Shown here: positions 28,787 through 56,976 of the stretch, piece after piece
Numbering within the stretch: the stretch's first letter is position 1
Layout: each line of letters begins with the position of its first letter
Virus record (IMG/VR): IMGVR_UViG_3300008255_004085
Source of the DNA: an uncultured virus (IMG/VR IMGVR_UViG_3300008255_004085)
Lineage: Duplodnaviria; Heunggongvirae; Uroviricota; Caudoviricetes
Direction: 5' to 3' (one strand)
Length of the DNA stretch: 64,000 bases
Position numbers and translations under genes: made by a program
Notes under the pieces: model-generated
Told to the model about the DNA's origin: nothing
Databases searched by the model: none
The model's input: the letters and a program-made list of their open reading frames with translations, nothing else

Positions 28787-30580
28787 TTATGCTGTTCCTA
28801 TATAATGTCGGTTTTTATAAGGGCGTCCATTACTATCATAAAGGAATTCGTCTTTTGTGTTTATTCCATTCGCTTGTTGTTTAGGTTGTGCCGTAAGTTT
28901 TTGGGGTGTGGGAGCAACATTCATTGTGTTTGGGTTGTTTTGGTTATTTGAATCTGGGGAAATAGAACCTCGATATTGAGATATGTCAGCATATTCTCGT
29001 GGAACTTGCCTATGTCGAGATGGTCTTTCAAAAGTTGGATTACTTAAATACATTCCTTCAAAATTAGCTGGTTTAATAGCACTATTATGAACCCAACCAT
29101 ACTGAATCCCTTGTAGTGAAAGATATTGTGCAAATTCCCATTGTGTATAACCAGGAATTGAGATTGTTGGATTAATAAAAATTTGTGAATTAGCCGGCAA
29201 AAGGTCAAGATTTGATTCTCTTAAATCAAGTTTTTTTGTTTCAGGATCTGAATAATAAAAATGAGCACCAGCAACTGTTGTATAAGGTTGCCAATTTTCT
29301 GCCGGGGATGCTGCCGGGGATGCTGCCGGGGATGCTGCCGGGGATGCTGCCGGGGATGCTGCCGGGGATGCCGCCGGGGATGCTGCCGGGGATGTTGCCG
29401 GGGATTCTGCTGATGAGGCTGATTCTTTAAAATCTTTATATTCCATTTTGTTATTAGATAAATCTAAAATAAAATGATCAAGATATTCTTTAAGCTGATT
29501 ATTAAGATTTCCTAATTTAATAAATTTATTTTTTATTTTTATTTTTTGATAGTTAGTTTTTGTTTTTTCTAAAACAGAATCCATATTATCTAATATTATT
29601 TTTATGTCATTTTGTAGTGGAATTATTACATAAGAAAATAATGTTTTAATATTTTCTTGAAAAGGTAGGTTGTTTTTTTCTAGGTCTTTATACATTCCAT
29701 AAAAACCCAGGTTTATTAAGCTCCAACAATACTCTGATTCTCGATCTAAATATTTGTTGAAATTTTTAATTAATTCTGAGCTTTCTTTAGTTTCGGTTTG
29801 GATATTTAGTTTTACATACGGTATATATTTTTGATTATAATTAGTAATACTATTATCAAAATCATCTTGATATTCACTTTGTCCTGTTGTTTTAAACGAA
29901 TCTATTTTCATCAAAGGATCATCTTTAAATTCATTGAATTGATTTAATGAACTTTCATATGAAAGTTGATTTCTAGATGAGTTTTTAACTGTGATATCTG
30001 TAAAATTTTTAATTTGTTCAAGTTTAAGATGCAATGTGTCTAAATTTCCTTTAACAGTCGGATTGTCTATGACCTTTTTTGCAATCTCTTCAACTATTTT
30101 TATATCTTCTGCATATGGATAAATAATATATTGAATTATTAGAAATAGGGCTTGTTCTATATCTCTCTGTATTATCCCGTCAGAAGCAGCTTCATTTATT
30201 GTGTCAAAAATTATACCTCTACCTGCTACCCATGTTCTAAAATTATTAAATCCACCCTGTCCACGCCCCATAATTTGATCACCTTTTATTATTAATTTGG
30301 TTGTATATCCATTTACTTTTGAAATAAATTTTTCTGGATTTGTACTAAGCCAATTAGTTAATTGGTTAAAAATATTATCAATACCTCCTCTCATCCCACT
30401 AAAAATAGATTTATAAGGTTCAACAGTCACTCTCTTTGCTGTTTTTTGGAAAGAGATAGAATTTGAAGCGGCTTTATCAAAAATAGAGGCAAGTTTGTGT
30501 TGGCCAAAGGCTTCTCTCACCCCTGCTTCTTTGATTGCACTTTTTAGATCTTGAATTATAATTTTTTCTTTTTGTTTCAT
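28787..30580 (-). CDS. hypothetical protein with SPAA linker and possible SH3b-like C-terminal domain
   Basis: Nine SPAx units; YGWVHNSAI. Confidence 0.75.
   Translation of the reverse strand: MKQKEKIIIQDLKSAIKEAGVREAFGQHKLASIFDKAASNSISFQKTAKRVTVEPYKSIFSGMRGGIDNIFNQLTNWLSTNPEKFISKVNGYTTKLIIKGDQIMGRGQGGFNNFRTWVAGRGIIFDTINEAASDGIIQRDIEQALFLIIQYIIYPYAEDIKIVEEIAKKVIDNPTVKGNLDTLHLKLEQIKNFTDITVKNSSRNQLSYESSLNQFNEFKDDPLMKIDSFKTTGQSEYQDDFDNSITNYNQKYIPYVKLNIQTETKESSELIKNFNKYLDRESEYCWSLINLGFYGMYKDLEKNNLPFQENIKTLFSYVIIPLQNDIKIILDNMDSVLEKTKTNYQKIKIKNKFIKLGNLNNQLKEYLDHFILDLSNNKMEYKDFKESASSAESPATSPAASPAASPAASPAASPAASPAASPAASPAENWQPYTTVAGAHFYYSDPETKKLDLRESNLDLLPANSQIFINPTISIPGYTQWEFAQYLSLQGIQYGWVHNSAIKPANFEGMYLSNPTFERPSRHRQVPREYADISQYRGSISPDSNNQNNPNTMNVAPTPQKLTAQPKQQANGINTKDEFLYDSNGRPYKNRHYIGTA
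29300..29404. repeat. 12-nt GC-rich VNTR (9 copies)
   Basis: gccgggga at 29301, 29313 ... 29397. Confidence 0.95.
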
Positions 30581-31923: not shown

Positions 31924-32631
31924 TTATTGGGGTCCAACATTTTGTCCTGTTGTGGCTGCCTTTTCTTTAATTTTATTAATTTTATTAATTTTATTAATTT
32001 TATTAGTTGCAATCTCAATTAAATTGTCTTTTGCTTTATTTAATTTAAAATAAGGTTCTTTATTGGATTCGTCAAAACCATTGGATTTATTAAAATGATT
32101 TTCGTCAACTTCTGCTAAAGATCCTCCTCTTAATGAAATCAAAATAGGATCGGCTTGTTTTACCCACTCGTTAACAAAATTTTTAATTTGTTCAATATTG
32201 TTGTTTCTATTAATAAAATTAATTGTATTATTAGCATAGATAATAAGAATACTAACATAATTTTGTGGATTTTCTACAATTTGTGGATTCATTTTATTAT
32301 AATCATAATATGGATCGTCTGGATTGTTTTTATAACCAAGATAATCATAGTAAGTGTTCTTTGCATAATTTGGTGGTTCTTCTTTATAGTTTTGTAAGAA
32401 TTTTTTTTGTTCTTCAAGTTCTAATTTCCACTTATCATAATCAGTGAAATTTATAGGTCGGGGGTGTTCGGAAAACCATTCCCGCATTCTTTTTTTGATA
32501 TCTTTGTCTGTTTGTGCTATTTTTATAATTTTTTCATCAATCAGTTTAGCTTCTTTTTGGAACCCAAGATCATCAAGCTTTTGAGCCTCACTCAACATTT
32601 TTCTAATTTTTTCTAGATTTTTAACTAACAT
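31924..32631 (-). CDS. leader-family protein, paralog of 32660..33223
   Basis: EAQKLDDLGFQKEAKLIDEKIIKIAQ; C-terminal VNEWVKQA. Confidence 0.8.
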   Translation of the reverse strand: MLVKNLEKIRKMLSEAQKLDDLGFQKEAKLIDEKIIKIAQTDKDIKKRMREWFSEHPRPINFTDYDKWKLELEEQKKFLQNYKEEPPNYAKNTYYDYLGYKNNPDDPYYDYNKMNPQIVENPQNYVSILIIYANNTINFINRNNNIEQIKNFVNEWVKQADPILISLRGGSLAEVDENHFNKSNGFDESNKEPYFKLNKAKDNLIEIATNKINKINKINKIKEKAATTGQNVGPQ

Positions 32632-32659
32632 TTAAAATACCTCCAAATCACCGAAATGT

Positions 32660-33223
32660 TTAAGCAATAACAGTTCCTGGTTGTTGTTCTTTTTGTTTAA
32701 CAAAATAAATCATCGTATTTTTAATTGTATTTATTTGTTCTTTTTGTTCAGGGGAAGCCAATGGCAAAATTTCATTTGCTTGTGCAACCCAAGAATCAAC
32801 ATATCTCTTCAAAAAATTAACATCTTGAATTTGATTAATTTGTTGAAGAAATTGATTACCAGATTGAACTAACCCTGAAAATGTTGCTTCAACATTTCCA
32901 GCAACTTGCCCTTCAACTTGCTGTTGTTGAATTGGTTGATTTGTTTGGCCAGATTGATCCAACCCAATTCTGCTATAAACAGAATCCCAATCAACATTTT
33001 TATATTTTGGATCTGCCCTCATTGTAGATATTTCATCAGCTAATTGTTGTCTTTCTTTTGCACTTTGTTGCTCAAAATCTTCATTTTCAGAATCAGTGCG
33101 GTAATCAATGTTTTGAGCAATTTTTATAACTTTTCGATCAATTGCTTTTGCCTCTTTTGAAAGCCCAAGATCATCAAGCCTTTGTGCTTCAATTAGCATC
33201 TCTTTGATTTTCTGAATTTCCAT
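32660..33223 (-). CDS. leader-family protein, paralog of 31924..32631
   Basis: EAQRLDDLGLSKEAKAIDRKVIKIAQ; C-terminal VDSWVAQA. Confidence 0.8.
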   Translation of the reverse strand: MEIQKIKEMLIEAQRLDDLGLSKEAKAIDRKVIKIAQNIDYRTDSENEDFEQQSAKERQQLADEISTMRADPKYKNVDWDSVYSRIGLDQSGQTNQPIQQQQVEGQVAGNVEATFSGLVQSGNQFLQQINQIQDVNFLKRYVDSWVAQANEILPLASPEQKEQINTIKNTMIYFVKQKEQQPGTVIA

Positions 33224-34880: not shown

Positions 34881-35819
34881 ATGTTCGGCAATCCTGATCT
34901 TGGAAATCTAAGAGTTGTTCTAATTAATGGTTCTCCTTTGTTCTGTTCAAATGTTGATTTCTATCCAAAACAAGAGATGGATCCAGTTGAACTACTTCAA
35001 GGTGGGCCAAGAACATTGATTTATTCTATTGGTAAGAAAACATTTGAGGGGACACTCTCAATCCCTCTTTATGTTGACACAGATGGGAACATAGCAGAAC
35101 CTTGTAAAGAAGTTATTAGATGTGCTGACAATCCATTGAGAAGCTTGTCATTAACAATGAATTATGGAATTATGGGAGAACCATTAACAGCAGATCTTTA
35201 TCAAAGTCCTCTTTCCACAGATTCGCATAAAAGATTAACATTAGGATGTTGTTATATTCAAAAATTAACAATAACTGTTGAAAATGCTGGCCCTATAACT
35301 ATGGAGGTTTCAATTATTGGTCTCCCAGATGATGAAAATGAAGATGACTATGATGTCGATGTCCCAACAGAGGGATTAATGGCTAGACAATGTTCATTTG
35401 CTGATTGCATCATTAGGAGTGGAGCAGACGGATCATATGTCTATTGGGAAAATATTCAAGAGTTTAATTTATCATTTGAAAATAAAGTTGAACCTTTGTA
35501 TCTTGTTACACAATCTAAAAGAGATTATGCTGATTATTTATTAGCAGGAGAAACGCATATTTTTGGAGAATGGACAGAAATAAAGAAGGCAGAAGAGTGG
35601 GATGATGAGAAAGGTCAATGGAAGCACGGTGGATATTTTGATGATTTTTATCTAAAAATAAAAATTGCTGACATAGTGGCTGACATAAGAGATATTGTTA
35701 TGAAACCACAAAGTCAGCCTTTAGGTGTAGGAATATTAAAAAGGAAAACAGAATTTATAGTTACATTTAGACATGGATGGGTAAGTGAGACAAGAAACCT
35801 AGTGTTCAGCGACTTATAA
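34881..35819 (+). CDS. Tail-tube-like protein, paralog 1 of 6
   Basis: GCCYIQKLTITVENAGPITMEVSIIG and IQEFNLSFEN resemble phage tail tube (Phage_tube_2-like) strands. Confidence 0.6.
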   Translation: MFGNPDLGNLRVVLINGSPLFCSNVDFYPKQEMDPVELLQGGPRTLIYSIGKKTFEGTLSIPLYVDTDGNIAEPCKEVIRCADNPLRSLSLTMNYGIMGEPLTADLYQSPLSTDSHKRLTLGCCYIQKLTITVENAGPITMEVSIIGLPDDENEDDYDVDVPTEGLMARQCSFADCIIRSGADGSYVYWENIQEFNLSFENKVEPLYLVTQSKRDYADYLLAGETHIFGEWTEIKKAEEWDDEKGQWKHGGYFDDFYLKIKIADIVADIRDIVMKPQSQPLGVGILKRKTEFIVTFRHGWVSETRNLVFSDL

Positions 35820-35848
35820 ATCTTTGACTAAATTAGGAGAAAAGAGAT

Positions 35849-37042
35849 ATGCCTATAAGAAATAACATAACTGGTATTTGGAGACATCTATATTTAAGGA
35901 ATCTTAGTAATAGTTATCAAACCTCAGTTTCATCTGCTGGAGGATATGATGGTTCTGGTGGATCCAGTGTTTCTAATCTGAATACTGTTGTTTTAATTGT
36001 TGAAAGCGCAAATTTTAGAACAGAACAAGATGTTAGTACATCAAGTCTACTTCAAGGTACTGTTAAGACAAAGGTGCTTCAAATTGGAGCGGCGACAGAC
36101 AGTTTAGAGGTTTCTGGTCCGACATTATTTGCAGAATCTTCTACAACATCAGATACAACACCAAAACTTCTTTATGCAGCTTCCACCGGAACAAAATATG
36201 GTGATGCTGGGAACGTTGCAGTTTCGTTCTTGGAAGGTGCCCTTGATATCACAAGTAGTTCTGCTCAAAATAGCTTTGTTGAAAAGATCGGATTAAGCAT
36301 TGACGAGAGTGGTGTTAAATGGGATGTGTCACTTAAAGGCGACCCAACCTCTCTTTATCCAGAATTCGGAAGTTCTGGAACAACTCTTCCTTATGGAGAA
36401 TCCACAAACTCACCAGCAGGACCTGACACAAGTGATGGTCTTCCAACAGCATTAAGAGAAGGTAGATGGTTTGACTTTTATGTCCCAACAACTGTTACCT
36501 TCTGGGATGGAGCCACAGGGACACCAGGGGCTGTTGATATTTCTGCAACAATTAAAAGTTATTCTGCAAACATAGACATCGGATACGACCAAATCAATTT
36601 GGTCGGTACTGGTCAGGCACCTTGGTTCGCAATTAATAAAATTGCAATGAATGGGACTATTAGTCTTGTTTTCCCATTATTAGAAATCCTTTATGGACAA
36701 GAATATGCTCCGGTCCCAACTTGGCAAGCTGTTCCTAATGCTTGGACTGCTGGTTCAAGTGTTTACACATCTTATGGGTCTAGGCTTCCTAGCTCAACAG
36801 GTGTTGATCCTGCAACAACAGGGACCTTCCCAGATAGGCCAGACATCTGTACTGTTGATAGTATGGCTGTAATTCCCAAGTTCGTTTCAAATGGTGGGGA
36901 TGTTTTCCCATCAACCTTGTTCGGGTTCCCAAGCGGTAACTCAACCACAGCAATTGTTATGAAAAGTTCAAGCATCAATGTTGGGACTGGAATTTTAACA
37001 GCAGATATGGACTATGAAGTTATTTTCACTCCAGTCTTATAA
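35849..37042 (+). CDS. Tail-tube-like protein, paralog 2 (Ser/Thr/Gly-rich)
   Basis: LLQG, SGPTLFAE, VEKIGLSID and REGRWFDF. Confidence 0.6.
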   Translation: MPIRNNITGIWRHLYLRNLSNSYQTSVSSAGGYDGSGGSSVSNLNTVVLIVESANFRTEQDVSTSSLLQGTVKTKVLQIGAATDSLEVSGPTLFAESSTTSDTTPKLLYAASTGTKYGDAGNVAVSFLEGALDITSSSAQNSFVEKIGLSIDESGVKWDVSLKGDPTSLYPEFGSSGTTLPYGESTNSPAGPDTSDGLPTALREGRWFDFYVPTTVTFWDGATGTPGAVDISATIKSYSANIDIGYDQINLVGTGQAPWFAINKIAMNGTISLVFPLLEILYGQEYAPVPTWQAVPNAWTAGSSVYTSYGSRLPSSTGVDPATTGTFPDRPDICTVDSMAVIPKFVSNGGDVFPSTLFGFPSGNSTTAIVMKSSSINVGTGILTADMDYEVIFTPVL

Positions 37043-37056
37043 AAAGTGAGGTTTTT

Positions 37057-38178
37057 ATGCCGATTTTTAACAATGCTACTGGCATCTATAAGATCGGTTA
37101 TGATACTGGTTTAGGGACAGGAGTTATTTGTCAAGATTTTACACACGATTATGATCTCAGTATTAGCAACATTCAAGAATTAATGTGTGGTGGTGGTGGC
37201 AGCATCGTTAAAAAAATTGACAATGTAATTTCCTCGACAGTTGTCACTGGACCAATGTTATTTGCCGAAAGTTCATATTTAGGTGAAAGATTAGCAGCCT
37301 TTGTAGATTATTTAGGTCTAAATTCATTAGATGATATAGGTTTTTATGATACTTATTGGTATGCTGTTAGATTAATGGGTAAACATTGGCTAAATATTGG
37401 TGGATCTTCTTTATTATCAGGAATTATGGTAGAATCTGTTAATATTTCTATTGATGATAATGGATTAACAACAAAAATTCAGTATTTCACAGATCCAGTA
37501 GATGCCGGTGACACTTCTATCGGAAGAATTATAAAAGCAACGACACCAGATCCAGGGATCACAGCTTTAAGAGAAAGTCGATGGTATGATTTTTATGCTA
37601 AAATGTCATATTCTCCTACTCCGAGTGTAACTGATGTTATTTCTTTTCCAATAAAAAATTGTGTAATTGACATAGGATTTGAGTATGAAACAGTTAATCC
37701 AATCGGTGGATTGGCAAAATTTTTATCAAAAGACACATCTTCTTTAACAAATCAATATTGGATGCATACTCCTTTTAGAACATTAAAAAATGTTATGATT
37801 AATTGTACAATTACAGGTCTTATGAGGAATGATATAACAAATGATTGGGGTAAATCAAAAATTTTAGGAATTACAAGTTCAGATTTAAGAAAAGATTATT
37901 TTCATGTAAGCACACAAAAAGAAGATGTTGGATATTTTGAACCATATGATTTTGATATTTTTACAATTAATGGAAGTTCTATTTATCCGTTGATCAAAAC
38001 AATTTTATTTGGATCAACAAGTGTCAACAGCATCCTTTATCCATATTATTCTGGTTCAAAAGTTTTTGTTGAGAATGTTGCTTGGTATATAATGGAAGTT
38101 ATTGAAAATAATACCGCTGGATTTTTAGATGTTGATATAAAACTTGAAGGAATAGCACCAATAAGGATGGTCCAATAG
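37057..38178 (+). CDS. Tail-tube-like protein, paralog 3
   Basis: MPIFNNATGI, TGPMLFAE, VESVNISID and RESRWYDF. Confidence 0.6.
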   Translation: MPIFNNATGIYKIGYDTGLGTGVICQDFTHDYDLSISNIQELMCGGGGSIVKKIDNVISSTVVTGPMLFAESSYLGERLAAFVDYLGLNSLDDIGFYDTYWYAVRLMGKHWLNIGGSSLLSGIMVESVNISIDDNGLTTKIQYFTDPVDAGDTSIGRIIKATTPDPGITALRESRWYDFYAKMSYSPTPSVTDVISFPIKNCVIDIGFEYETVNPIGGLAKFLSKDTSSLTNQYWMHTPFRTLKNVMINCTITGLMRNDITNDWGKSKILGITSSDLRKDYFHVSTQKEDVGYFEPYDFDIFTINGSSIYPLIKTILFGSTSVNSILYPYYSGSKVFVENVAWYIMEVIENNTAGFLDVDIKLEGIAPIRMVQ

Positions 38179-39312
38179 ATGGCAACTTTTTTAGAATATA
38201 ATAAATTAATAAAAAATATTTTTTATAAATGGAAAAATTTTACATTTGATGGAGCTATTGACAATCAAGTTATTTCAAGTTTTGCGAACACTGGTGTAAT
38301 GCATCAGCAAATAGGAAAATATTTCACAATGAGTTATGGTGAAGAAACTTTATTTGCAGAAAATATTTCTGTTTATAATTCAAACGAATCACAAACAAAA
38401 GCTATGTTCACAGGTAGAGCCCAATTAAGAACAGATAATTCTACAGATGCAGATATTGATTATGATGTTTTTAATAAACAATTTCCTAGTAGAGAAATAA
38501 AATTATCTGGGATTGCTACTTATAACAATGATGCTTGGATAACTCTTTTAAAAGATTCAATTGATTATACTTTAGGTAAAAATATAGATTTTGATAATGA
38601 ATCTCTAATCCCTGTTGTTTCTAATATTTCATTAGACATCTCTCCACAACAAGCCACTTGGTCAATAACATGGAAAGCATTTGGTGAGGATTATGATAAT
38701 TTATTTTCATCTGGGAGTGATGAATTAGATGTTATTTTAACATCAGAAGAGAATGTGGAAACAAGAATTGTCAAATGGTATGATGTGTTAATAGTTTTTG
38801 ATACTAGTATTTTTCCTAATTTTCCTATTCCAAATAGTTCTGATGAAATTGAATGTTATGTTAATTCAATAAACATCTCATGGGATATAGAAAATAAAAT
38901 ATATTTTACAATTGAAAAAAATGGAACAATCAAAGATCTTCCTTATTATCTTCCAACAAGACTAAAGACAGGATTAAATTTTTCTGGATATAGCCCATTG
39001 GTTACTGATAAAAATTCTGAAAGTTATTATAAAGTTTTTAAAGACAATAAATTAAATCCAATTGAAGATGTTGTTTCAGAGAAATTTTTTATGACAGATA
39101 GACAAAAAAACGATGATGCTATAAAAATTTATATTGCAAATCAAGGAGGAGTTATTAATGATAATAGAAGAATAGATAAAAGAATTGGTGAGGTTTCTAT
39201 TGATGGTGCTTCAACAGAAAATGCATTTTGGCTAATTCATAATTCTTCTTTTTCGTTATCTCCTGGTGATCCTATGGAAGTTACAATAGATGCAACAAAG
39301 ATATTTAGTTAA
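38179..39312 (+). CDS. Tail-tube-like protein, paralog 4
   Basis: LSG, VSNISLDIS, RIVKWYDV and VNSINISWD. Confidence 0.55.
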   Translation: MATFLEYNKLIKNIFYKWKNFTFDGAIDNQVISSFANTGVMHQQIGKYFTMSYGEETLFAENISVYNSNESQTKAMFTGRAQLRTDNSTDADIDYDVFNKQFPSREIKLSGIATYNNDAWITLLKDSIDYTLGKNIDFDNESLIPVVSNISLDISPQQATWSITWKAFGEDYDNLFSSGSDELDVILTSEENVETRIVKWYDVLIVFDTSIFPNFPIPNSSDEIECYVNSINISWDIENKIYFTIEKNGTIKDLPYYLPTRLKTGLNFSGYSPLVTDKNSESYYKVFKDNKLNPIEDVVSEKFFMTDRQKNDDAIKIYIANQGGVINDNRRIDKRIGEVSIDGASTENAFWLIHNSSFSLSPGDPMEVTIDATKIFS

Positions 39313-39324
39313 TAGAGAAAAAAC

Positions 39325-40590
39325 ATGGCAATAATTCCTTCTAGTTTTGGTACTGCTTTTAAAATAATTCAATGGGGTAAATCCGATTATATAAATCCTA
39401 ATTTTGCAATTATATGTCAAAGCTCCACAGAAAAAGAGAGTATGGATTTGTCTCATGTTAGATTAACAAGTGGTTCTGCTATGCCATTTTTAAAAGAAAT
39501 TGATAGCCGTGAAATGAGTTATTCTTTATCTGGGCCTTGTTTGGTTAATGGAACAACTAGAGGAGAGTTTCCAAATGAAGAAACAAGTCAATTTTTAAAT
39601 GATATTGAGTATGGAGACCCGAATGGAGAATTAGATCCTATTCTTTTATCTCCATATTCAAATTCATCTGGATATATAACAAAAGATCAAGTTAAAATGT
39701 TAGATGTCCCAGGGTTGTCAATTATTCTTTTACTTGAGAATTTATCAAATTCTTTAGATACTTCTAAAAATCCAGATTTAACAAATGGTAAAAGTGTTTT
39801 ATATTGGTTGTCAGATTCTGATGAAACACCAGTTTTAGATAGCATTAATCTAAATCTTTCAACAGATGGATTATCTTCTACAATTAATTTTAAAGGTGGA
39901 ATTTATGACATTCCACATCAAACACAAATTTTTGATTTTGCACATCCAATGCGAGAAAGTAATTGGTATGATTTTGCATCTGGGATTTCAATAGATGAAA
40001 TAATTATAGGGAATGATTCGGTTTATGATATTCCAGCTTTTATAACAGATGCAAGTATTTCAGTTAATTATGAATATCTAGATATTGATTACATCGGAAA
40101 AACACAATCAAAAAGCTATATTCCAAATGGTGGGGTTTTTAATTTTGAAATAACGATTCTATTCGATTTTGATAAACTTCATACTTATGTTGATCGTCAA
40201 GATGGATTTGATGCAGTTAATTCTGTTCTATATTCAGAAGAAGCTATTAAAACTTTTCCATATAGAAGTTCAAAGCCAAAATTCTCTCTTTCAAATTTTA
40301 AATTTATAGTTGGATCAATAGAAGATCATATATCTAGTTTATCTTCTGCTTTAATCGATCAGGTTTCTAATGCAGAGTCTAGCAATAATTTTGGTGCAAA
40401 ACTCGCAAGGGTTTTTAATACATTTTTATCTGATAATATTTCTAATGATTTTGTGATAAATAATTTTGGTCAACCAACTTTAAATAATGATTTAAATAAT
40501 CAATCTTCAAGAATTATAACAGATGTTTCTATTGATAGAAAAATGACATTTTCGACAATAACAATTTCTGGACAAAAACTTTTTAATTAA
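39325..40590 (+). CDS. Tail-tube-like protein, paralog 5
   Basis: SGPCL, LDSINLNLS and RESNWYDF. Confidence 0.55.
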   Translation: MAIIPSSFGTAFKIIQWGKSDYINPNFAIICQSSTEKESMDLSHVRLTSGSAMPFLKEIDSREMSYSLSGPCLVNGTTRGEFPNEETSQFLNDIEYGDPNGELDPILLSPYSNSSGYITKDQVKMLDVPGLSIILLLENLSNSLDTSKNPDLTNGKSVLYWLSDSDETPVLDSINLNLSTDGLSSTINFKGGIYDIPHQTQIFDFAHPMRESNWYDFASGISIDEIIIGNDSVYDIPAFITDASISVNYEYLDIDYIGKTQSKSYIPNGGVFNFEITILFDFDKLHTYVDRQDGFDAVNSVLYSEEAIKTFPYRSSKPKFSLSNFKFIVGSIEDHISSLSSALIDQVSNAESSNNFGAKLARVFNTFLSDNISNDFVINNFGQPTLNNDLNNQSSRIITDVSIDRKMTFSTITISGQKLFN

Positions 40591-40599
40591 GAGGTAACA

Positions 40600-41766
40600 A
40601 TGGATCCAAAAGTAATAAATGCTAATAGTAAACTAGTTAAAGACACCATAAGCGGAGTAATGCTTCTTTGTGATAGTTTTGATTTTTCCACAAAAATGTC
40701 TCACTCATCAAAGGATCTTTTAGTTACTGGATTAGGGGATTGGGTCGAAGACATAGATGATTTAAATAAATCAATAACAATGTCTGGACCAATTTTAATT
40801 GGTAGTTCAGAAGATCAAATAGGATATAGAAAGACTTTACCAACAAAAGATCATACTGGATTATTATCTTCAAAAATTTTTAATGATTTATATACTTGGG
40901 TGTCAGATTCCAGAATCCCTATTTTTTCTATAGAAAATATTTCAATAGATATTTCAAATAATGCCACCATAAATATTTCTTTAGCTCCACACTCTCCGTA
41001 TGTTGTACAAGAAAGTGGTGCTTTAGTTAATCTGTTCTCTATCCCAAGTTTTACTGTATATTCAACTAATGAAATATTTAGAGATTTGCAAACAGCAGAA
41101 AATTTTATTGCTGCTAGAACTTTAAAATATTATGATTTAAATCTTGATAATGGGCAAGAGGTTCCAATTGAGATTCGAAATGTATATGTTTCGAATCTCA
41201 AAATAGATTTTTCAATGGACTGGAATCCGATCAAAACAATTCCGACAGCAACAACAATTACAGATCACAATACTCTTGAACAAGTTAATTACTCTACTGT
41301 TGCTTCTTCTGATATTTATAATTATGTCATTCGCCAAGAGCCAACGAATGAATCTGAAACAACAACATCAGCTTCATCTGGTTATACCCCTTATTATGGT
41401 CCAATCATTCCTATGAATGTTTTGCAAAATGTGCATAGTTCTTGCACAATTGAAATGTATAATTTCGGTTATCTCCCTGGGAACTCTCTAGAAAAATGGA
41501 TTGCTGGGTATTGGAATGATGGGCCGCCACTACATGTAAAACTCAGAGATAATAATCTAATAAAATTAACTAGATTTTTAGATCCCGCACAAAATTCAGA
41601 TGTTTTAGGAATTTCTGATGTTGTTTCTTCTAATTGTTATTGGAGAGTTGAGGACATTGATGTAAAAGCTTCCGGTGGTGAATTAGTTAAATACACAATA
41701 ACACTCAAAGGTATTTATAAATCAGTTCCAAATATTCTTCGAAATGTTCCGGTCGCACTTGCTTAA
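40600..41766 (+). CDS. Tail-tube-like protein, paralog 6
   Basis: SGPIL, IENISIDIS and RTLKYYDL. Confidence 0.55.
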   Translation: MDPKVINANSKLVKDTISGVMLLCDSFDFSTKMSHSSKDLLVTGLGDWVEDIDDLNKSITMSGPILIGSSEDQIGYRKTLPTKDHTGLLSSKIFNDLYTWVSDSRIPIFSIENISIDISNNATINISLAPHSPYVVQESGALVNLFSIPSFTVYSTNEIFRDLQTAENFIAARTLKYYDLNLDNGQEVPIEIRNVYVSNLKIDFSMDWNPIKTIPTATTITDHNTLEQVNYSTVASSDIYNYVIRQEPTNESETTTSASSGYTPYYGPIIPMNVLQNVHSSCTIEMYNFGYLPGNSLEKWIAGYWNDGPPLHVKLRDNNLIKLTRFLDPAQNSDVLGISDVVSSNCYWRVEDIDVKASGGELVKYTITLKGIYKSVPNILRNVPVALA

Positions 41767-42236
41767 TCACCCCCATTGATATATTCATCCATAAAATTCA
41801 ATGGCATTTCTGTAATTATAGAATAAATTAAAGCATCACTTGCTGGAATTGTCATAGAATCTATATGATTATCAATTTGATAAGTTAAAGCAGCAATTGG
41901 ACAACCATATTTTTCACCCATAACCGTGATGTCTATCACATCTCCACCATAATTACAGATCATAGAAAGGACTTGTTCATATGGTGTTGAATAAAAATTA
42001 TCTTCATCTGAAAGAACATCATTAAAATAGAAGAAATGTGTAATTTGAGAAGGTGTCAAAGGAAGTGAAATAATTCTACTTTTAGTATCTGTTAAAAAGA
42101 CATGAAACATTTGGTCTTTATCAACTTGTATTTCTTTAACAAAAAATTGACTTGCTAATAATCCATTGATTGGTTTGATTAAAGATTTTTTTGTTTTTTC
42201 TGGAGCAACGCTTTGGGTGCTTTTACTGCTTTTCAT
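41763..42236 (-). CDS. DUF151/bifunctional nuclease-like protein
   Basis: PASDALIYS...MPL resembles RPSDAIALA...PI; the preceding strands fit the same layout. Confidence 0.55.
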   Translation of the reverse strand: MKSSKSTQSVAPEKTKKSLIKPINGLLASQFFVKEIQVDKDQMFHVFLTDTKSRIISLPLTPSQITHFFYFNDVLSDEDNFYSTPYEQVLSMICNYGGDVIDITVMGEKYGCPIAALTYQIDNHIDSMTIPASDALIYSIITEMPLNFMDEYINGGD

Positions 42237-42589
42237 TTTTTCTCCAATAAACTTCCACTTATTTTAAGTTTTCTAGATTTACTAAATGGTTTGATTATTT
42301 TATAAGATTCAAATTCTATTCCATTAGTTGAATTGTACAATTGGGATTTAAAATAATCTTTAAAATCTGAAGCTCTTATCCCATCTGATAATTTTAGAAT
42401 AACCATCCAACTAAAATGATCATTTTCTAATTTTATATGAAAATTTTCACATTGACCAAATTGAAATAAAAGGGTTGAAATAAAACTAAAAGTATTTTTT
42501 ATTTTATCACAAAGATTTATGTTTTCAGAAGAATCGTCTGAAGAAAGACGAATGTTGTTTAAACCAAAAAGATCAAAATATTCACTCAT
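42233..42589 (-). CDS. hypothetical protein
   Basis: 118-aa ORF with AGGAG RBS. Confidence 0.65.
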   Translation of the reverse strand: MSEYFDLFGLNNIRLSSDDSSENINLCDKIKNTFSFISTLLFQFGQCENFHIKLENDHFSWMVILKLSDGIRASDFKDYFKSQLYNSTNGIEFESYKIIKPFSKSRKLKISGSLLEKK

Positions 42590-42610
42590 GGGTTTTTCTC
42601 CTAATATTTT

Positions 42611-42635
42611 ATTCTTCTATTTTTTTAAAAATCCT
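42611..42635 (-). promoter_or_regulatory. sigmaH-like promoter AGGA-N17-GAAT
   Basis: AAGGATTTTTAAAAAAATAGAAGAATA upstream of 42589. Confidence 0.45.
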
Positions 42636-44421
42636 TTTCATTTGTTTCATTGTTTTTATCATCGCAATTTTCATAGATTTTCTGTCCAGCTTGCATCATT
42701 GTCTTTCTTAAATATTCTATTGATTGATTTAAAATATCTGTATTTTCAGAATCTAAATTCTGCTTAACAGTTTGTATTGCATCTTCTATTTTTTTATTAA
42801 AAGGTTCTTCTTCATCAAACAAGTTTTCTAATTGTTCTTTGTTGTTTTTTAGCATTGATTCCGCTGAATATATTTCTTGTTCAGCTAAATTATTTAATTC
42901 AATTCTTGCTTTTTTCTTTGCGTCTTTTTCTTTTTCTTTTTCTGCGCTCTCTAAAATTTTAGAGATTTCTTCAGAAGATAAATTAGATCCGCCTTCTATT
43001 CTTATTTTTTGTTCTTTATTTGTTGCTTTATCTTTTGCTTGAACACTCAAAATTCCATCTGCGTCAATATCAAAAGTAACTTCAATTTGTGGAATACCTC
43101 TTGGCGCTGGTGGGATATCTGTGAGTTTAAACCGCCCCAAGCTTTTATTGTCCACAACAAAAGATCGTTCTCCTTGAACAACATGGATATCAACCATTGT
43201 CTGCCCATCTTCTGCTGTAGAAAAGACTTCTGATCTTGAGACCGGAATAGTTGTGTTTCTTTCTATCATCCTAGTTGAAACACCACCTTTGGTTTCGATA
43301 CATAATGACAAAGGAGTAACATCAAGCAAAACAATATCTTTAACATCACCTGTTAAAACAGATCCCATGATAGCAGCACCCATGGAAACAACCTCGTCTG
43401 GATTAACACCTTTCTTTGGTTCTTTCCCAAGCCATGATTTAACTTTATCATAAACCATAGGGATTCTTGTTGATCCTCCGACAAAAATAACTTCATCTAT
43501 ATCTTTCGGTTTTAATCCAGCATCTTTTAGAGCATTATCAACTGAAACTTTTGTTTTGTCAATAGTTTTTTCAATTAGAGACTCAAATTTTGCTCTTGTT
43601 ATAGAATGTTGGAAACTAAATGGTCCATTATCACCTGGAGCAAGATACGGTTCAATTATCTCTGCTACCTTTGAACTAGAAAGATCAATTTTTGCTTTTT
43701 CAGCCGCAATTGAGATTCTTGCGATTATTGCAGGATCTTTTTTAGAATATTCCTGCACATCGTCTGGAAGAAGATCAAATAGATATTCAAAAACTATTTG
43801 ATCAAAATCATCTCCACCTAGCTTTGTGTCTCCACTTGTTGATTTAACTTCGAACAACCCATCTCCAAATTCTAGGATTGTCACATCAAAAGTTCCACCG
43901 CCCAAGTCATAGACAAGAATAGTTTCCCCATCCTTTTTACCAAGCCCATAAGCTAAAGAAGCCGCTGTTGGTTCATTTATAATTCTCAAGACCTCCAAGC
44001 CAGCAATTTCACCTGCTGTTTTTGTAGCTTCTCGTTGATCATTGTCAAAATAAGCAGGGACTGTAATTACAGCTTTTGTGACTTCTTCACCTAGATAAGT
44101 CTCTGCATCTTCTTTTAATTTTTGAAGAATTTTTGAAGATATTTCTTCTGGTGATAAATCAAATTCGCCGATTTTAATTTTAGTTCTTTGACCCATAGAT
44201 CTTTTAATTGACGAAATTGTGTTATCTATGTCAATTATTCTTTTTCTTTTTGCTTTTTCTCCAATAATAAAAGAGCCATCAGATTTATCACAATTAACTA
44301 TTGATGGTGTTGTTCTAGAACCAATGTCATTTGCAATAACAACTGGTTGGTTGTCTTCCATAATAGAAACAACACTATTACTTGTCCCTAAATCGATTCC
44401 TATAGCTTTTATACTAATCAT
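42625..44421 (-). CDS. dnaK: Hsp70 chaperone DnaK
   Basis: [31 protein letters not shown] and NPDE; lacks the proteobacterial ~24-aa insert. Confidence 0.97.
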
Positions 44422-44438
44422 TTTTTAACCTCATAAAT

Positions 44439-44858
44439 TTATAAGATGTCTTCATTTTCATCTTCTTCATCTATATCAAACTCCTCATAATCTTCAAGAA
44501 TTTGATCATTTTCTATAACAAGTTTTTTATATATTTCACTATAAATATCTAAATTAGATTTTATTTCTTTTAAAAACTCAGATGTGTTTTCCATCTTCTT
44601 TTCTAATTCAACGATATCCTCAAAATCTATTGGTGGAGCAGACGGAAGGACATCCATCCAAACATGAATTAAAAAAGAAGGGAGAGGAAAAGTTGTTATT
44701 TTTCTACATTTATGACATTCACATATCACATTAACAATATTACCAAATATTGGGTGGCGGCCCTTAACATCTTCTTTAAAAAATGGCTCTCTGCACTTTC
44801 TATTCTCACACTTTGAAGGAAGTTCTCCGTGAATTCTAACAAAATCACTTGACGACAT
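44439..44858 (-). CDS. Zn-ribbon protein with acidic tail
   Basis: CENRKC and CHKC. Confidence 0.65.
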   Translation of the reverse strand: MSSSDFVRIHGELPSKCENRKCREPFFKEDVKGRHPIFGNIVNVICECHKCRKITTFPLPSFLIHVWMDVLPSAPPIDFEDIVELEKKMENTSEFLKEIKSNLDIYSEIYKKLVIENDQILEDYEEFDIDEEDENEDIL

Positions 44859-44860
44859 TT

Positions 44861-45754
44861 TTAATCTCCTTTAATCATTTCCGAACATAAATTGAATATA
44901 CTTTTCAAATTATCTTCTTTTTTAATTATAGAATTGTGCTCCAACATATTTATACCTTGAATTATTTCAGAAATATCATATTTTGACATTTTTTCATTAA
45001 AAAGTTTCCCAGGTTTGTCGTTTATATAATATCCTTTTGAATTAATAACATAGCCACCACTAGGAAAAACGTCCGATGTTGTTAAACACGGAATCCCAAT
45101 CGACAAAGCTATCACAGATGAGAATGAGATACTCTTATGTTTTTTTAAATCTAAAATTATTTTAGATTTTTTAATTTCATTTTTTATCATTTCATAAGAT
45201 GCGTTTTGTGGAGTTGAGACAAAAATTTTTTCTTCTTTTGAAATCTGTTTTCTATAATATTTTATCAAATCAACAATTACTTTTTTAGAAAAATATGGGG
45301 CTAATATTTTTAATGGCTCTGAACTTTTTGAATATAACCAAGCCTCTATTGTTTCTCGAAGCATAGATTCGTCGTTAGGCCAAAAATAAGATAAAATCCC
45401 ACTTTTTTCTTGTTGGTTTTCCTCGAAAATTGGGAATATCATATTCTCTAAATAAAAATACTTATTCATTTGAAATAAACAACTTGGTTTTAGATGATGA
45501 TCTGTTGTTAAAAAGGCATAGTTTTTATAATTAGATAAATTAAAATTTCTAGCTGGCCCAAACCAAAGATTTATGCTGTTGTGTGGAACACTTGAAGAAA
45601 AAACATCTAAATAATTAGTTGGTATTGCAGGAAAAGGAAAATCACTATTTGTAAATTTAATTCCAACATTAAAAAACTTGCTTATAGCTTCTGCATATCT
45701 ATAAGCAATCAAAAAATCATCTGTTAAATTTGGGAAGGCTCTAATTATAAACAT
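44861..45754 (-). CDS. possible degenerate GT-B (GT4-like) glycosyltransferase
   Basis: SISFSSVIALSIGIPCLTT resembles EGFGLPxxEAMxxGxPVIT but lacks the Glu residues. Confidence 0.4.
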   Translation of the reverse strand: MFIIRAFPNLTDDFLIAYRYAEAISKFFNVGIKFTNSDFPFPAIPTNYLDVFSSSVPHNSINLWFGPARNFNLSNYKNYAFLTTDHHLKPSCLFQMNKYFYLENMIFPIFEENQQEKSGILSYFWPNDESMLRETIEAWLYSKSSEPLKILAPYFSKKVIVDLIKYYRKQISKEEKIFVSTPQNASYEMIKNEIKKSKIILDLKKHKSISFSSVIALSIGIPCLTTSDVFPSGGYVINSKGYYINDKPGKLFNEKMSKYDISEIIQGINMLEHNSIIKKEDNLKSIFNLCSEMIKGD

Positions 45755-46012
45755 TTAAAATTCTTCCCATAAAATAGGATCTAAAACTAAATTACTATTT
45801 GTTTTTTTAACATTGCTTGGTCTTAATTTCATTTCTTTAATTTCTTTTTTAACCTGGTCTATAGACATTGAATTGTTTATTTTGATATCTTTAGGGATCA
45901 AAAGACATGCAAGATTTTTTTCAACAATTTTAGGTTTTTCACCAGAAATTATTTCTAAAATTTCTCCATTTGTTTTATTAAACTTTATCCATCTCATTTT
46001 TTTCTCAATCAA
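45755..46012 (-). CDS. hypothetical protein
   Basis: 85-aa ORF coupled to its neighbours. Confidence 0.6.
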   Translation of the reverse strand: MIEKKMRWIKFNKTNGEILEIISGEKPKIVEKNLACLLIPKDIKINNSMSIDQVKKEIKEMKLRPSNVKKTNSNLVLDPILWEEF

Positions 46013-47771
46013 TTATTTTTGAATTCAATTCAAGGCGTTTGTATATTTTTCTTCTTGCTGTTGCTTGTGGGCGAAGATATTTATTTGTGGGCCAAGTATC
46101 TATGATGATTGCGTACTCGCTACCTTTTCTAACAAGTCTTCCAGCTTTTTGTTCAAGTCTTCCACCAAATTTTATATCTTCTTCTGAAAAATCTTCCCAA
46201 TCCACAACTACTTCTTTAAACAGTTCTTTGTCTTTTTCCCAAGTTACACAGTCTTTTGCACGAACAATTTGTTTTGGTTTAAAACCACTATGTTTTGTTG
46301 GATCGGAACCACCTGCCCCAGCTAGGATTAGAACATCAAGGGTTTTAATATCCAATCCTTGATCTGCGATACTAGTTGCGATCAAAGATAATAATTTTTT
46401 CTCTCTTAAATCTGAAACTGCTTGAATTCTCTTTTTTGTTGTATCTTTTCCACTTAAAAACAAAGATTCTGGAATTAAACTTTCTAGATATTCACCTTGA
46501 GCATACTCATTAACGAGGATTAAACAACTTAGTCCTCGTTTATTAAATCTTTCTGCAAATAAAGCTAATTTTGTATTCCATTCTTTTCCATTAACTACTA
46601 TTGTTTTATAAGCATCTTGATAACTCCATTCATCAGCAGGGATATAAATTGTTTTTTCCTCTTTTTTTACTTCTCCTGTTGCTTCATCTTTTGTTTCTAT
46701 GGTTTTTACTAATTCAGCACCTTCTGGATCGTCATAAATTCTAACCATATAAATTTCTGGATTTAAAAGATAATTAGCATCAATTAATTGTTTTAATGTG
46801 ATATCTGAAAGGAGCTTCCCGAAAGAAGCTTCAATCTCCAAATCTCTACCATCAGATCTGTAATTAGTAGCTGAGAAAGCATACCTATGATAAGCATTTG
46901 AACATTTTTGGAGAATTGTCTGCCATTTAGCAGAGGCACTCAAATGGCTTTCGTCTGCAATTATAATTGTCGCAGTTTCAATTAATTTCTGAATTTGATT
47001 GCTAAATTTTGAAACTTCTGTTTCTTTTTTTGTTTTCTTTGTCTTTTTAATTATTTTTTTCTTTGATTCATCAAATCTTAACCCATAAGCGGACAAAGCA
47101 GAATCTATAATAACAACTGTTACATCTTTTATTTTTACAACACCATCTCCGATTACACCGACTTCAATATTCTCACCATTCTCTTTAATTCTCTCTTCAA
47201 TTGCACCTTTGGTTTGATAAAGCAAATCTATAGTGGGGACAAACACAATAGCAGGAGCACAGTTTAACTTTTGGATTAAAGCAGAGAAGATTGTGGTTTT
47301 ACCAGATCCAGTGGCACAAGAACAACAACCACGACCAACACGCAAACAAATATCAAGGACTGCTTCTTGGTAATCTCGGAGGGAAAAAGGTACTTGTTCA
47401 CCTTTTTCATTATCAATAGTTTTAGATAATTCCCAAAATTTATTTTTTTCTGGTTTACTCCGATTGTCTGAAATAGAAATAAACCAACCTTTTGAATTTA
47501 ATAATCGCCCAACACGAGTAAAACAGCCAGTCGGAAAAACTTGGTTTTTATAATCAAAAAGATAAAATTTCCCACTCCATTTGTTTGATCTGAATTTAGC
47601 TGACCATCTAGCTTCTGGAACAGGATAACTCAATTCTTCAAAAATTTGTTTGGAAAGCGTGTATGGTATTTTTTTATTTGAAAACCCTTGGCCCTCAACC
47701 TCTTCTTTAAATCCTTTTATTTTTGAAAAATCATTGTTTATTTCAATAAATACTATTTTCTTTTTGTCCAT
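46005..47771 (-). CDS. SF2 helicase (UvsW/RadD-like)
   Basis: LRDYQ, ATGSGKT, DESH, SAT, GLDI and QKAGRLVR. Confidence 0.9.
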   Translation of the reverse strand: MDKKKIVFIEINNDFSKIKGFKEEVEGQGFSNKKIPYTLSKQIFEELSYPVPEARWSAKFRSNKWSGKFYLFDYKNQVFPTGCFTRVGRLLNSKGWFISISDNRSKPEKNKFWELSKTIDNEKGEQVPFSLRDYQEAVLDICLRVGRGCCSCATGSGKTTIFSALIQKLNCAPAIVFVPTIDLLYQTKGAIEERIKENGENIEVGVIGDGVVKIKDVTVVIIDSALSAYGLRFDESKKKIIKKTKKTKKETEVSKFSNQIQKLIETATIIIADESHLSASAKWQTILQKCSNAYHRYAFSATNYRSDGRDLEIEASFGKLLSDITLKQLIDANYLLNPEIYMVRIYDDPEGAELVKTIETKDEATGEVKKEEKTIYIPADEWSYQDAYKTIVVNGKEWNTKLALFAERFNKRGLSCLILVNEYAQGEYLESLIPESLFLSGKDTTKKRIQAVSDLREKKLLSLIATSIADQGLDIKTLDVLILAGAGGSDPTKHSGFKPKQIVRAKDCVTWEKDKELFKEVVVDWEDFSEEDIKFGGRLEQKAGRLVRKGSEYAIIIDTWPTNKYLRPQATARRKIYKRLELNSKIID

Positions 47772-47899
47772 AACAAAATTTTACTCCAACGTATTATACT
47801 CACAATCTGCATCAGCAATATATTATAAAAACCTCGAACATGAAATTAGTCAACTTAATAACCAATTTCATGTTCGAAGTAGAGATATTATGATCGATA

Positions 47900-48442
47900 C
47901 TATACAGAAACGGAAGACTTTGGAGAAACCAACATAGATATTTTTATCTTTTTCTTAACACGCCCACCTTCAGATGGGGCCTGATCAATATTGCATTGAT
48001 CTGTAAGAGACAAAGTTATTTTAGAAAAGATTTCAAGACCTATTTCCTTGTGGGAATATTCCCTATCAGAAAAGAACATCTCAAATTTAACTTTATTCCC
48101 TTTATTAAGGAATCTCTTTGCTTGATTGATTTTAACATCCAAATCGTGTTTCTCTATGACTGGAGATAGCCAAATAGTCTTCACCTTTGTTGTTTTGGCT
48201 ATCTTGTTAATCTCTTTTGATTTTTTCTTCTGATCAAAATAGAATTTTTCCCAATTCATAATTTTGCAAACAGGTGGATTCGCAACAGGGCTAATTTCTA
48301 CTAAATCTAAAGATAATTTCTGGGCTTCATTTAAAGCTTTGGAAACATCTACAATACCCAATTGTTCTCCATCCTCGTCGATTAAACGAACGACTTTAGA
48401 TCTAATTTGATTGTTTATTCTTGGCTGTGTGTGTTTTTCCAC
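47900..48442 (-). CDS. infC: Translation initiation factor IF-3 (GTG start)
   Basis: RINNQIR..VRLID, LDLVEISP...PPVCKIM, I..HD..K and GNKVK. Confidence 0.93.
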   Translation of the reverse strand: MEKHTQPRINNQIRSKVVRLIDEDGEQLGIVDVSKALNEAQKLSLDLVEISPVANPPVCKIMNWEKFYFDQKKKSKEINKIAKTTKVKTIWLSPVIEKHDLDVKINQAKRFLNKGNKVKFEMFFSDREYSHKEIGLEIFSKITLSLTDQCNIDQAPSEGGRVKKKIKISMLVSPKSSVSV

Positions 48443-48534
48443 TGGTTATTTTTAATATCCTTTGTTGCTCAATAGGTCAATAGGTCAATTTTGCCAACCG
48501 TCCTACAAGCGGCTTGCCTCTAGTATATACGGAT

Positions 48535-48975
48535 CTACAACTGCTCATAACTGAAACTTTGGACAGCATTTTTAGTGGCTTTATCATCTCTAATAAAAAT
48601 ACCAACAAGCATTTTAAGCAACGAAAAGACAATCTCATGCTCCTCTTCCCCAAGTTCAATGTTGCCAGCCTTTAGAGAGGCTTCTAGGACCTCAGAGGCC
48701 ACCTTTTGAGCCTCTTCTTCCGTCACTTGTCCATCCCAAATGGAAGTCAGAGATAAAAGGACAGCATCGTAAACTTTTTGATATCTATCACCAAGATATT
48801 TTTTCAAAACAACTTCTTGAGTTTTTAATATATTCGTGATTAATTCAATATTAAATCCAGTTTTTTCTTCCAATTTATCTTTGGCTTCTTTTGCTTTATT
48901 TGAATATTTTTTCATAAAAAAGACAAAAAGAAGAGACAACAGAGCAAAACAACCGACTATAATCCAAGTAGCCAT
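48535..48975 (-). CDS. N-terminally membrane-anchored protein (holin-like candidate)
   Basis: WIIVGCFALLSLLFVFF followed by KK. Confidence 0.6.
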   Translation of the reverse strand: MATWIIVGCFALLSLLFVFFMKKYSNKAKEAKDKLEEKTGFNIELITNILKTQEVVLKKYLGDRYQKVYDAVLLSLTSIWDGQVTEEEAQKVASEVLEASLKAGNIELGEEEHEIVFSLLKMLVGIFIRDDKATKNAVQSFSYEQL

Positions 48976-48993
48976 AATTTACCTCATTTCTGT

Positions 48994-49161
48994 TTAAGAT
49001 TCAGATATTCCTTTTTTGCAATAATTACATTTGCCATCATTTTTTTCAATTGTTTTTATTGAAATTACTTTTCCGCAATGTGGACAGGTTTTTATTTCAG
49101 CTTTTTCAGCATATGATAAACCACCTGAAACCTTTGAGGAAACACCTTTTTTAATCATCAT
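48994..49161 (-). CDS. 55-aa Zn-ribbon protein (below the ORF-track cutoff)
   Basis: MMIKKG...CPHCG...CNYCKK; AAGGAG RBS. Confidence 0.7.
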   Translation of the reverse strand: MMIKKGVSSKVSGGLSYAEKAEIKTCPHCGKVISIKTIEKNDGKCNYCKKGISES

Positions 49162-49231
49162 AATTAAATCTCCTTTGTAGTTACTTATATAATTTTAATA
49201 AAAATCCTCTATTTTTTGTATAACTAATGAA

Positions 49232-50263: not shown

Positions 50264-50319
50264 TTGGCATCTACTGTCTCTTCTACAAATTTATCCCAAG
50301 GAATAATTGATTTTATCCT

Positions 50320-50685
50320 CTAATCTTTAATTACTATCTCAAAATTTATCTTAATTGGAATAAACCAATCATCACTATCTAAATCATAAAGATTTTCTAG
50401 AAAATAAATAATATCATGAGTCGTAATTGTTCTGACCTTTTCTTTAACTTCTTCCATTGTTTCAAACCCAAGGCCACACAAATCACTCCAAGGGCTTTGA
50501 AATCTTTTGGGAATTTCAAAATTTTTGTTTGTTAAATACAGATAAACATCTAACATAACTTCTTCTATTATTTTTTCATAATTAGAAAAATTATATTTTC
50601 TAACAACAATTAATCTAAAGATTCTTTGTTGATCTGATTCTGAAAGATTTTCAAAATTTTCTTTCCCCACGCTGTTCTCTGTCAT
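50320..50685 (-). CDS. hypothetical protein
   Basis: 121-aa ORF overlapping the dnaJ stop. Confidence 0.6.
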
Positions 50686-53183: not shown

Positions 53184-53364
53184 CTCAAACGTTACCTTCC
53201 TTGAAAAAATCCAACAGCATTGGCACCACCTATTATACACCAGGGGCAGAACACGATTCTCTGGGAATATTATTTTTCATCGAGTCCTAAAATTTGGACC
53301 CTAATAGATGGTGTTGGTTAGTTGGCTTGGGGGTGACTAGAGAAAACCATGGAATTAATTCCAA

Positions 53365-56962: not shown

Positions 56963-56976
56963 CTTTTGATCTCCAG

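Follow-up and report, generated by a model that had tools for sequence, protein, structure and literature searches.

A conserved cassette of six tail-tube paralogues in an uncultured giant phage, and its possible role in a non-contractile tail

The stretch of DNA analysed here (the "window": 64,000 nucleotides of an uncultured virus, IMG/VR record IMGVR_UViG_3300008255_004085) reads, on its sequence, as a portion of a giant bacteriophage genome. Positions 34881-41766 hold six intact, co-oriented open reading frames (ORFs) on the plus strand, designated T1 to T6, which are separated by intergenic gaps of 0-29 nt and bounded on both flanks by minus-strand genes. Profile comparisons indicate that the six are paralogues, alike beyond chance, and structural models of the first two place them among the two-domain tail-tube proteins. 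We consider it somewhat better than an even chance (roughly 0.55) that they are the tube proteins of a non-contractile tail, with T2 as the major subunit and the other five as minor, position-specific rings. Such a tube would probably comprise a wider range of ring types than any described in the sources we found.

Paralogy and predicted fold of T1 to T6

The original prediction, made without database searches, had drawn attention to six consecutive ORFs of 312-421 residues running opposite to their flanks, and its coordinates and lengths are exact. T1 (34881..35819; 312 residues) is assigned as a two-domain tail-tube protein from an AlphaFold model and fold search, and T2 (35849..37042; 397 residues), which contains Ser/Thr/Gly-rich insertions, to the same fold class from a low-confidence model. 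T3 (37057..38178; 373 residues) is a fast-evolving tube paralogue nearest T2 (hhalign E-value 2e-21), and T4 (38179..39312; 377 residues) is the most divergent, with a lengthened first hairpin loop (leave-one-out profile 5e-13, and alignment). T5 (39325..40590; 421 residues) lies near T2 and T3 (hhalign 7e-13 and 2e-13, respectively), and T6 (40600..41766; 388 residues) has a long second hairpin loop (leave-one-out profile 8.5e-17, and alignment).

Raw pairwise similarity among the six is faint, with z scores of at least 5 in 5 of 15 pairs (200 shuffles). Profile-profile comparison joins all of them in a chain (T1-T2, 7e-7; T2-T3, 2e-19; T2-T5, 2e-10; T3-T6, 2e-5; T3-T4, 8e-5), against a best score of 8e-3 from 30 reversed profiles. 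The weakest members, T4 and T6, are recovered by profiles that exclude them, the window copies at 5e-13 and 8.5e-17, and their orthologues in 4/4 cases each (5e-13 to 3e-9 for T4; 9e-17 to 3e-9 for T6); the best background matches among about 2,400 ORFs were 0.2 and 0.08, respectively. The common ancestry proposed earlier is upheld by this chain of significant matches together with the leave-one-out recovery. The four collinear motif blocks that had been listed for the six hold in a looser form, and were overstated as written. Strictly coded, the first block occurs in none of the six and the second in two, rising to four and six, respectively, when relaxed; the third is the best, being found in five, with T1 retaining its Arg and Asp without the aromatic pair; the strings given for the fourth are present in all six. 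None of the 35 other window ORFs matches the loose patterns, which were fitted after the six were known. An alignment of the six covers the two domains with their hairpins, as well as the closing pair of strands at the C terminus; the sequences are distant and the loop limits approximate, and the hairpin loop tips differ in length and sequence.

The AlphaFold2 model of T1, built from 41 aligned sequences, reached a predicted local distance difference test score (pLDDT) of 85.8. Its Foldseek matches (E-values 1e-12 to 3e-8) are tube and tip chains of DT57C and T5, the SH-Ab15497 major tail protein and the P74-26 tube. VIA-align superposed it on the P74-26 tube with Z 18.8 (262 residues, root-mean-square deviation 3.3), on the SH-Ab15497 protein with Z 18.6, on a T5 tip chain of 298 residues, which we take from its length to be p140, with Z 16.3, on pb6 with 15.1 and on a 284-residue HFTV1 chain with 11.5. 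These five two-domain chains align over 229-264 residues, after which scores drop to single-domain tubes at Z 9.3 or lower. The stacking hairpins of the T1 model are formed by strands 24-36/47-62 and 192-206/219-235. The T2 model (18 sequences) is poor, with a pLDDT of 52, and its best five structural matches are those of T1 (Foldseek E-value 4e-6; VIA-align Z 7.7-9.7, next 4.9), among them the P74-26 tube at Z 9.7 over 243 residues and SH-Ab15497 at 8.9. Both models end at the tube strand pair, and no Pfam immunoglobulin (Ig) match occurs in T1-T6. An ESM Atlas model of T4 was uninformative (pLDDT 0.35), clusters assigned to PF23779, the family of the T5 p140 baseplate tube protein, occur among the neighbours of T1 in the ESM Atlas (12-100% of members), and a search of PDB sequences with the T1 alignment found none.

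These models support the placement of T1, and more weakly of T2, in the two-domain, trimeric class of tubes represented by T5 pb6/p140 and P74-26, and profile homology suggests the same class for T3-T6; the two-repeat tube fold of the original prediction stands at those graded strengths. As to the Phage_tube_2-like label attached to it, T1 scores 13.8 bits (E-value 0.043) against a curated cut-off of 27 bits for Phage_tube_2 (PF18906), and T2-T6 give no match. Across Pfam and PHROG, matches were confined to T1 and sub-threshold. When the T1 homologues were compared with PF18906, 21 of 41 matched at E-values of 0.1 or lower (best 1.3e-13).

Conservation of the cassette and related tube genes in other phages

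Six metagenome loci contain a T1 relative (L001-L006); L002 and L003 represent the same phage, and L001 and L005 end at T1. All four loci that extend far enough (L002/L003, L004 and L006, from three other lineages) carry six genes in the same order, so that the synteny suggested at the outset as a check does recur in related phages. Identity between window proteins and their orthologues is 47-54% for T1, 42-47% for T2 and 27-34% for T3-T6 (27-28% for T3). Between L003 and L004, identity by codon position is 0.32-0.44 at third and 0.66-0.93 at second positions in all six genes, and this far greater change at third positions argues that all six are under purifying selection. In a quick tree of 58 rows each position from T1 to T6 forms its own clade, with support of 97-100 in the Shimodaira-Hasegawa-like approximate likelihood ratio test (SH-aLRT), implying that the six copies predate the split of the sampled lineages. 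Terminal branches measure 0.83-1.46 for T3-T6 versus 0.31-0.45 for T1 and T2, the former evolving two to four times faster.

Tube genes homologous to T1 (profile E-value 3e-12) also occur as a family designated M (L008-L018), in uncultured phages of 350-550 kb. The M gene is found where a tube gene is normally expected, ahead of a pair of chaperone-sized genes and one of tape-measure size, and both copies tested score above the PF18906 cut-off. One clear copy is present in each of the genomes G001 and G003, with a weak second candidate in G003; separately, L018:10001-11981 holds two tandem M-type genes (324 and 328 residues) in the usual tail position, and the 10 other M loci show one. G003 (L017; 499 kb, with terminal repeats) and G001 (L008; 548 kb) are records with a T5-class tube gene and are candidate very large siphoviruses; in G003 the sheath search described below gave no match.

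A profile search yielded 41 relatives, from which P0042 (a false repeat match) and the shortest fragments were excluded, and a second-tier motif led to 8 IMG/VR loci, with L080/L082 and L081/L083 as near copies. In the sister clade only two tube genes, A1 and A2, occupy this locus (8/8 loci), on the strand opposite to a downstream DnaK gene; A1 is the T1 orthologue (hhalign 1e-29) and A2 is nearest T2 (2e-16). Four sister genomes (G007-G010; 73-100% complete) contain 5-6 tube-family genes each, the additional ones being B1, accompanied by B2 in three of the four (absent from G007), and C1 and C2, which lie downstream of the head-tail adaptor gene. These further genes fall at two other loci, their positions being 69030, 152918 and 154690 in G007; 73689, 74570, 148889 and 150648 in G008; 181226, 182964, 247488 and 248363 in G009; and 143761, 145521, 228670 and 229660 in G010. 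Leave-out profiles support C1 in 4/4 genomes (E-values 2e-7 to 1e-3) and C2 more weakly (1/4, at 2e-4), and the two tested copies of each match PF18906 below its cut-off. C1 has an inserted domain and low-expression codons, and precedes a homologue (E-value 2e-4) of the gene that follows canonical M; the G008 copy has a 500-residue N-terminal extension in common with a large repeat protein. Composition and position mark genes at G007 175622, G008 167172, G009 162638 and G010 123296 (665-1119 residues) as candidate tape-measure genes. For phages of this size they are short, and none is preceded by a tube gene; two that were tested had no Pfam match. The sister genomes also encode many Ser/Thr/Gly-rich proteins of 1,000-2,900 residues, which from their composition look like fibres or baseplate parts; such parts would require points of attachment.

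T3 and T5 are nearer to T2 than to A2 or B, T6 scores 2e-6 with B2 and 1e-5 with T3 (hhalign), and A2 groups with B (support 89) in a tree of 32 of the 58 rows, with M rows excluded. The proximity of T3 and T5 to T2, taken with the grouping of A2 with B, is consistent with each clade having expanded its set separately. We rejected the possibility that T3-T6 represent the scattered C genes of the sister clade gathered together, T-to-C profile scores being at background (E-values 0.01-0.7). Elsewhere, when T1, T2 and an M-type protein were compared by tblastn with 50,697 phage records, nothing matched, and hence no cultured relative emerged; peptide-pattern searches of IMG/VR returned no relative of T1, T2, P0023 or P0055, and a homologue search for T4 no new lineage. 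One match among genome_contigs (L007; 42 residues, E-value 9e-4) was taken as chance.

Tail type, subunit roles and competing explanations

That no sheath or tape-measure gene adjoins the cassette, as first noted, extends to the whole window, in which none was recognised; the sole tape-measure matches were weak and fell on a 163-residue ORF at 6743-7234. No adjacent sheath would be expected, as this class of tube is known from non-contractile tails. Families for the sheath (PF04984, PF17482) and Baseplate_J (PF04865) matched 0/5 related records, two of them 100% complete, and 3-4 of 14 control genomes, although a divergent sheath could escape such a search. Moraphages were ruled out as the group in question, since they carry a sheath (PMC12619734). 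The cassette does not occupy the canonical siphophage major tail position, before the tail chaperones and tape-measure; in the window and its relatives it is followed by opposite-strand genes and DnaK.

Relative abundance was approached indirectly, through the share of C-ending codons for Phe, Tyr, Asn and Ile, in which the major capsid gene ranks first or second in 4/4 sister genomes. T2 uses such codons at 25 of 69 positions (0.36), second among 41 window ORFs, and the other five genes at 0.05-0.15 (p 2.6e-7), T5 having the lowest share of the 41. Guanine plus cytosine (GC) content at four-fold sites is flat across T1-T6 (0.07-0.19), and as it does not follow the C-ending share of T2, the bias is not one of general GC content. 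T2 is again the top gene in L003 (p 7e-3) and L004 (p 0.07). In the sister clade A2 exceeds A1 in 7/8 loci, with p<0.001 in four, two of these being near copies; in likeness to the major capsid gene A2 ranks 4 of 159 ORFs in G009 and 3-4 of 148 in G010, where like that gene it never uses ATA, and moderately in G008 (17-30 of 178). A1, B, C1 and C2 show mostly low-copy-like codon usage. T2 is thus the probable major tube protein by this measure, and our initial idea that T1 plays that part was lowered by the codon results.

We propose a giant phage with a long non-contractile tail, in which T1-T6 would be six full-length two-domain tube proteins, each forming, as in other members of the family, a trimeric, pseudo-six-fold ring that stacks through its two hairpin loops. 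T2 would be the abundant subunit of most of the shaft, as its codon bias suggests, and T1 may be a conserved low-copy adaptor forming a single ring, comparable to T5 p140 or the baseplate-tail connector (BTC) of HFTV1. T3-T6 would be low-copy minor rings, whose changed loop tips may fix their neighbours and whose outer insertions may bind collars or fibres. These rings would have set positions, in all likelihood close to the tip, where they would act as anchors or joints for those structures. Tandem duplication, prior to the divergence of the sampled lineages, would have expanded a two-gene ancestor (T1 with a single T2-type gene) into the cassette. Among the possibilities raised by the original prediction, the best fit is a tube of position-specific rings having a single major subunit, since codon bias singles out T2, and an unknown filament or injection apparatus is an unneeded and improbable reading. 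A wider picture is offered tentatively, as clearly less likely than this proposal: a giant sheathless phage group with a segmented tube of five to eight ring types, their fixed order set by matching loop tips, in which the sets were enlarged independently (T2-T6 in one clade; A2, B1 and B2 in the other) and the major role passed from C1, at the ancestral position, to a duplicated gene in a cassette of its own.

Several observations weigh against a shaft of T2 with five minor rings. The best-conserved member is T1 rather than T2, and T1 is also the closest to M, the canonical single tube gene of other giant phages (hhalign 3e-6; 7e-2 for T2). The sister genomes have further tube genes, with C1 in the usual major-tube position, and a further tube gene or a sheath could lie outside the window in the genome of T1-T6 itself. 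The codon bias fails in L006 (T2 0.34, p 0.8) and in G007 (A2 rank 55-98 of 205). No tape-measure, chaperone, distal-tail or collar gene adjoins the cassette, and the position of the cassette is uninformative as to the site of any ring. Approximately unbiased (AU) tests reject neither a single clade of T2-T6 (p-AU 0.46) nor one of T2 and A2 (p-AU 0.26), the tree allowing more than one order of duplication. The T2 model is of poor quality, as noted, and the fold of T3-T6 is indicated by profile homology.

The first of these points would suit an arrangement in which the major tube is T1, or else the product of a C1-type gene that adjoins the head-tail connector genes beyond the window, with T2-T6 all serving as minor rings. 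The position of C1 before a homologue of the gene after M, and the absence of the T2 codon signal from L006 and G007, also speak for it. We regard it as unlikely, because T1/A1 and C1 have low-expression codons in the window and in 4/4 sister genomes; in likeness to the capsid gene A1 ranks 114-142 and C1 134-186 of 148-205 ORFs. A somewhat stronger contender, though still doubtful, is a co-polymeric shaft in which the paralogues are mixed along its length or within rings (for example as two heterotrimers), so as to produce a mosaic surface or a gradient of flexibility. Each of the six retains its two stacking hairpins and its full length, the operon is tight, six is two times three, and the genes are strictly co-retained in the three other lineages, all of which such a shaft would accommodate. 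Unequal codon bias, however, implies unequal amounts, the loop tips vary in length and sequence, and a sister clade with two genes here and one or two at locus B (G007 lacking B2) is a misfit with obligate heterotrimers.

The separation of the cassette from the tail module, on its own strand, and the faster evolution of T3-T6 could instead indicate alternative tube subunits or a second tube-like appendage, such as host-specific tail variants or a non-tail filament. This seems improbable: the lineages agree in how many genes there are and in what order, the reads showed no repeats, invertase or switch and no supported joint, the main tube candidate lies within the cassette, and no second tape-measure or base gene is near. 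Least credible of all is a contractile tail, with T1-T6 as its inner-tube and initiator rings and a sheath that either has diverged too far to be detected or is encoded beyond the window. Myophages and injection systems do carry several tube-fold proteins (T4 gp19, gp48 and gp54, for instance), and the genome beyond the window could hold a sheath, but the full-length two-domain structural matches all come from non-contractile tails, and the sheath and Baseplate_J searches of related records were empty where the controls were not.

Genomic surroundings and relation to known tails

T2 also lies on a metagenome contig of 272,967 bases, which sets the source phage contig at no less than about 273 kb. 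The material derives from aquifer and groundwater metagenomes, and 6 of 19 listed runs contain at least half of the window's words; two runs, X1 and X2, are possible sources. One contig of run X1 covers the six-gene stretch with 0 differences, and pieces from X3 and X4 likewise show 0 differences, so that as far as contigs can show the stretch is not an assembly artefact. Window genes are densely packed and mostly on the minus strand. Their products include gyrase A and B, RecD2, a Clp-type AAA ATPase, an amidase, PhoH with an intein, DnaK, two DnaJ proteins, IF3, peptide deformylase, Thg1 and tRNA nucleotidyltransferase. The downstream flank (41763..44421, minus strand) encodes a conserved 157-residue protein of unknown function, a 118-residue ORF and DnaK, and is conserved although outside the cassette, DnaK and a homologue of the 157-residue ORF following also in L002, L004 and L006. 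Promoter and terminator scans were at shuffle level (41 versus 40.6 and 5 versus 3.0, respectively).

Other features of the window are recorded here in their own right. DnaK, DnaJ, IF3, peptide deformylase and Thg1 make up a host-like translation and chaperone block at 42625-53240 (minus). The PIN-PhoH gene at 23416-25851 (minus) contains an intein with Hint and LAGLIDADG domains, its orthologue having 452 residues in L003 and 810 in L004. A 597-residue unknown at 28787-30580 (minus), with a linker of tandem Ala/Ser/Pro four-residue repeats, is missing between the same flanking genes in L003 and L004. Unrelated-looking ORFs at 31924-33223 (minus), 22398-23405 (minus) and 60771-62363 (plus) share a short leader at the N terminus whose last residues form a K-I/L-A-Q-like motif, and many sister-genome proteins start similarly; at a guess this is possibly a capsid-targeting leader. 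The last of these ORFs and an unknown at 55271-56989 (minus) also have, judged by eye, a similar internal segment on opposite strands. A 177-residue beta-rich unknown at 20847-21380 (minus), conserved at 43-45% in L003 and L004, is possibly structural; its match to the T2 profile (E-value 0.27) is at chance level.

To our knowledge, solved tails of the two-domain class use one tube protein and at most one duplicate ring. T4 has several tube-fold proteins (gp19, gp48 and gp54), and T5 p140 is a low-copy duplicate of pb6, at 9% identity, that forms one ring carrying the fibre collar p132 (10.1101/2022.09.20.507954). Like T1 and T2, pb6 and p140 of T5/DT57C (PDB 7QG9, 8HQZ, 5NGJ) have two tandem tube domains per chain, and their pairing of a major subunit with a diverged low-copy duplicate resembles the proposed T2 with its minor rings. 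The two T5 tube genes, however, both lie in the tail module, whereas here six form one cassette away from tape-measure genes; the C-terminal Ig domain of pb6 is not seen in the T1 and T2 models, and identity to T5 is about 10%. P74-26 tube proteins form trimeric rings stacked through Loop1 and Loop2 (PMC10034513), and the DT57C tube is a stack of 40 rings of this kind, the rise being 41.8 A (PMC10713586). P74-26 (PDB 8ED0) and SH-Ab15497 (PDB 8XAN) gave the top VIA-align matches, and the Loop1/Loop2 hairpins are present in all six proteins; in the portion available (PMC10034513), these are single major tube proteins and no paralogous ring set is described. In HFTV1 the BTC protein gp41 makes up a single adaptor ring, a pseudo-hexameric trimer whose chains each have two fused domains (PDB 9FKB; PMC12494034), and the 284-residue chain of 9FKB that matches T1 at Z 11.5 is presumably gp41. 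That archaeal virus differs in having one such ring under a hexameric tube. The M family resembles T1 by homology, and differs from the cassette in its usual tail position and mostly single copy.

Our literature search, which did not extend to supplements or subscription papers, found no description of six such paralogues, and the available part of a preprint on huge-phage structure (10.64898/2026.10.24.761521) describes no such array. The retention of six paralogues in order, despite identities of 27-34% in T3-T6, implies that each has its own job, and the case suggests that the major subunit need not be encoded by the tube gene that is best conserved or that lies in the customary place. If the rings are stacked in a set order, they would provide a natural system for learning how one fold encodes ring-to-ring specificity, and would point to an unstudied tail design among giant non-contractile phages.

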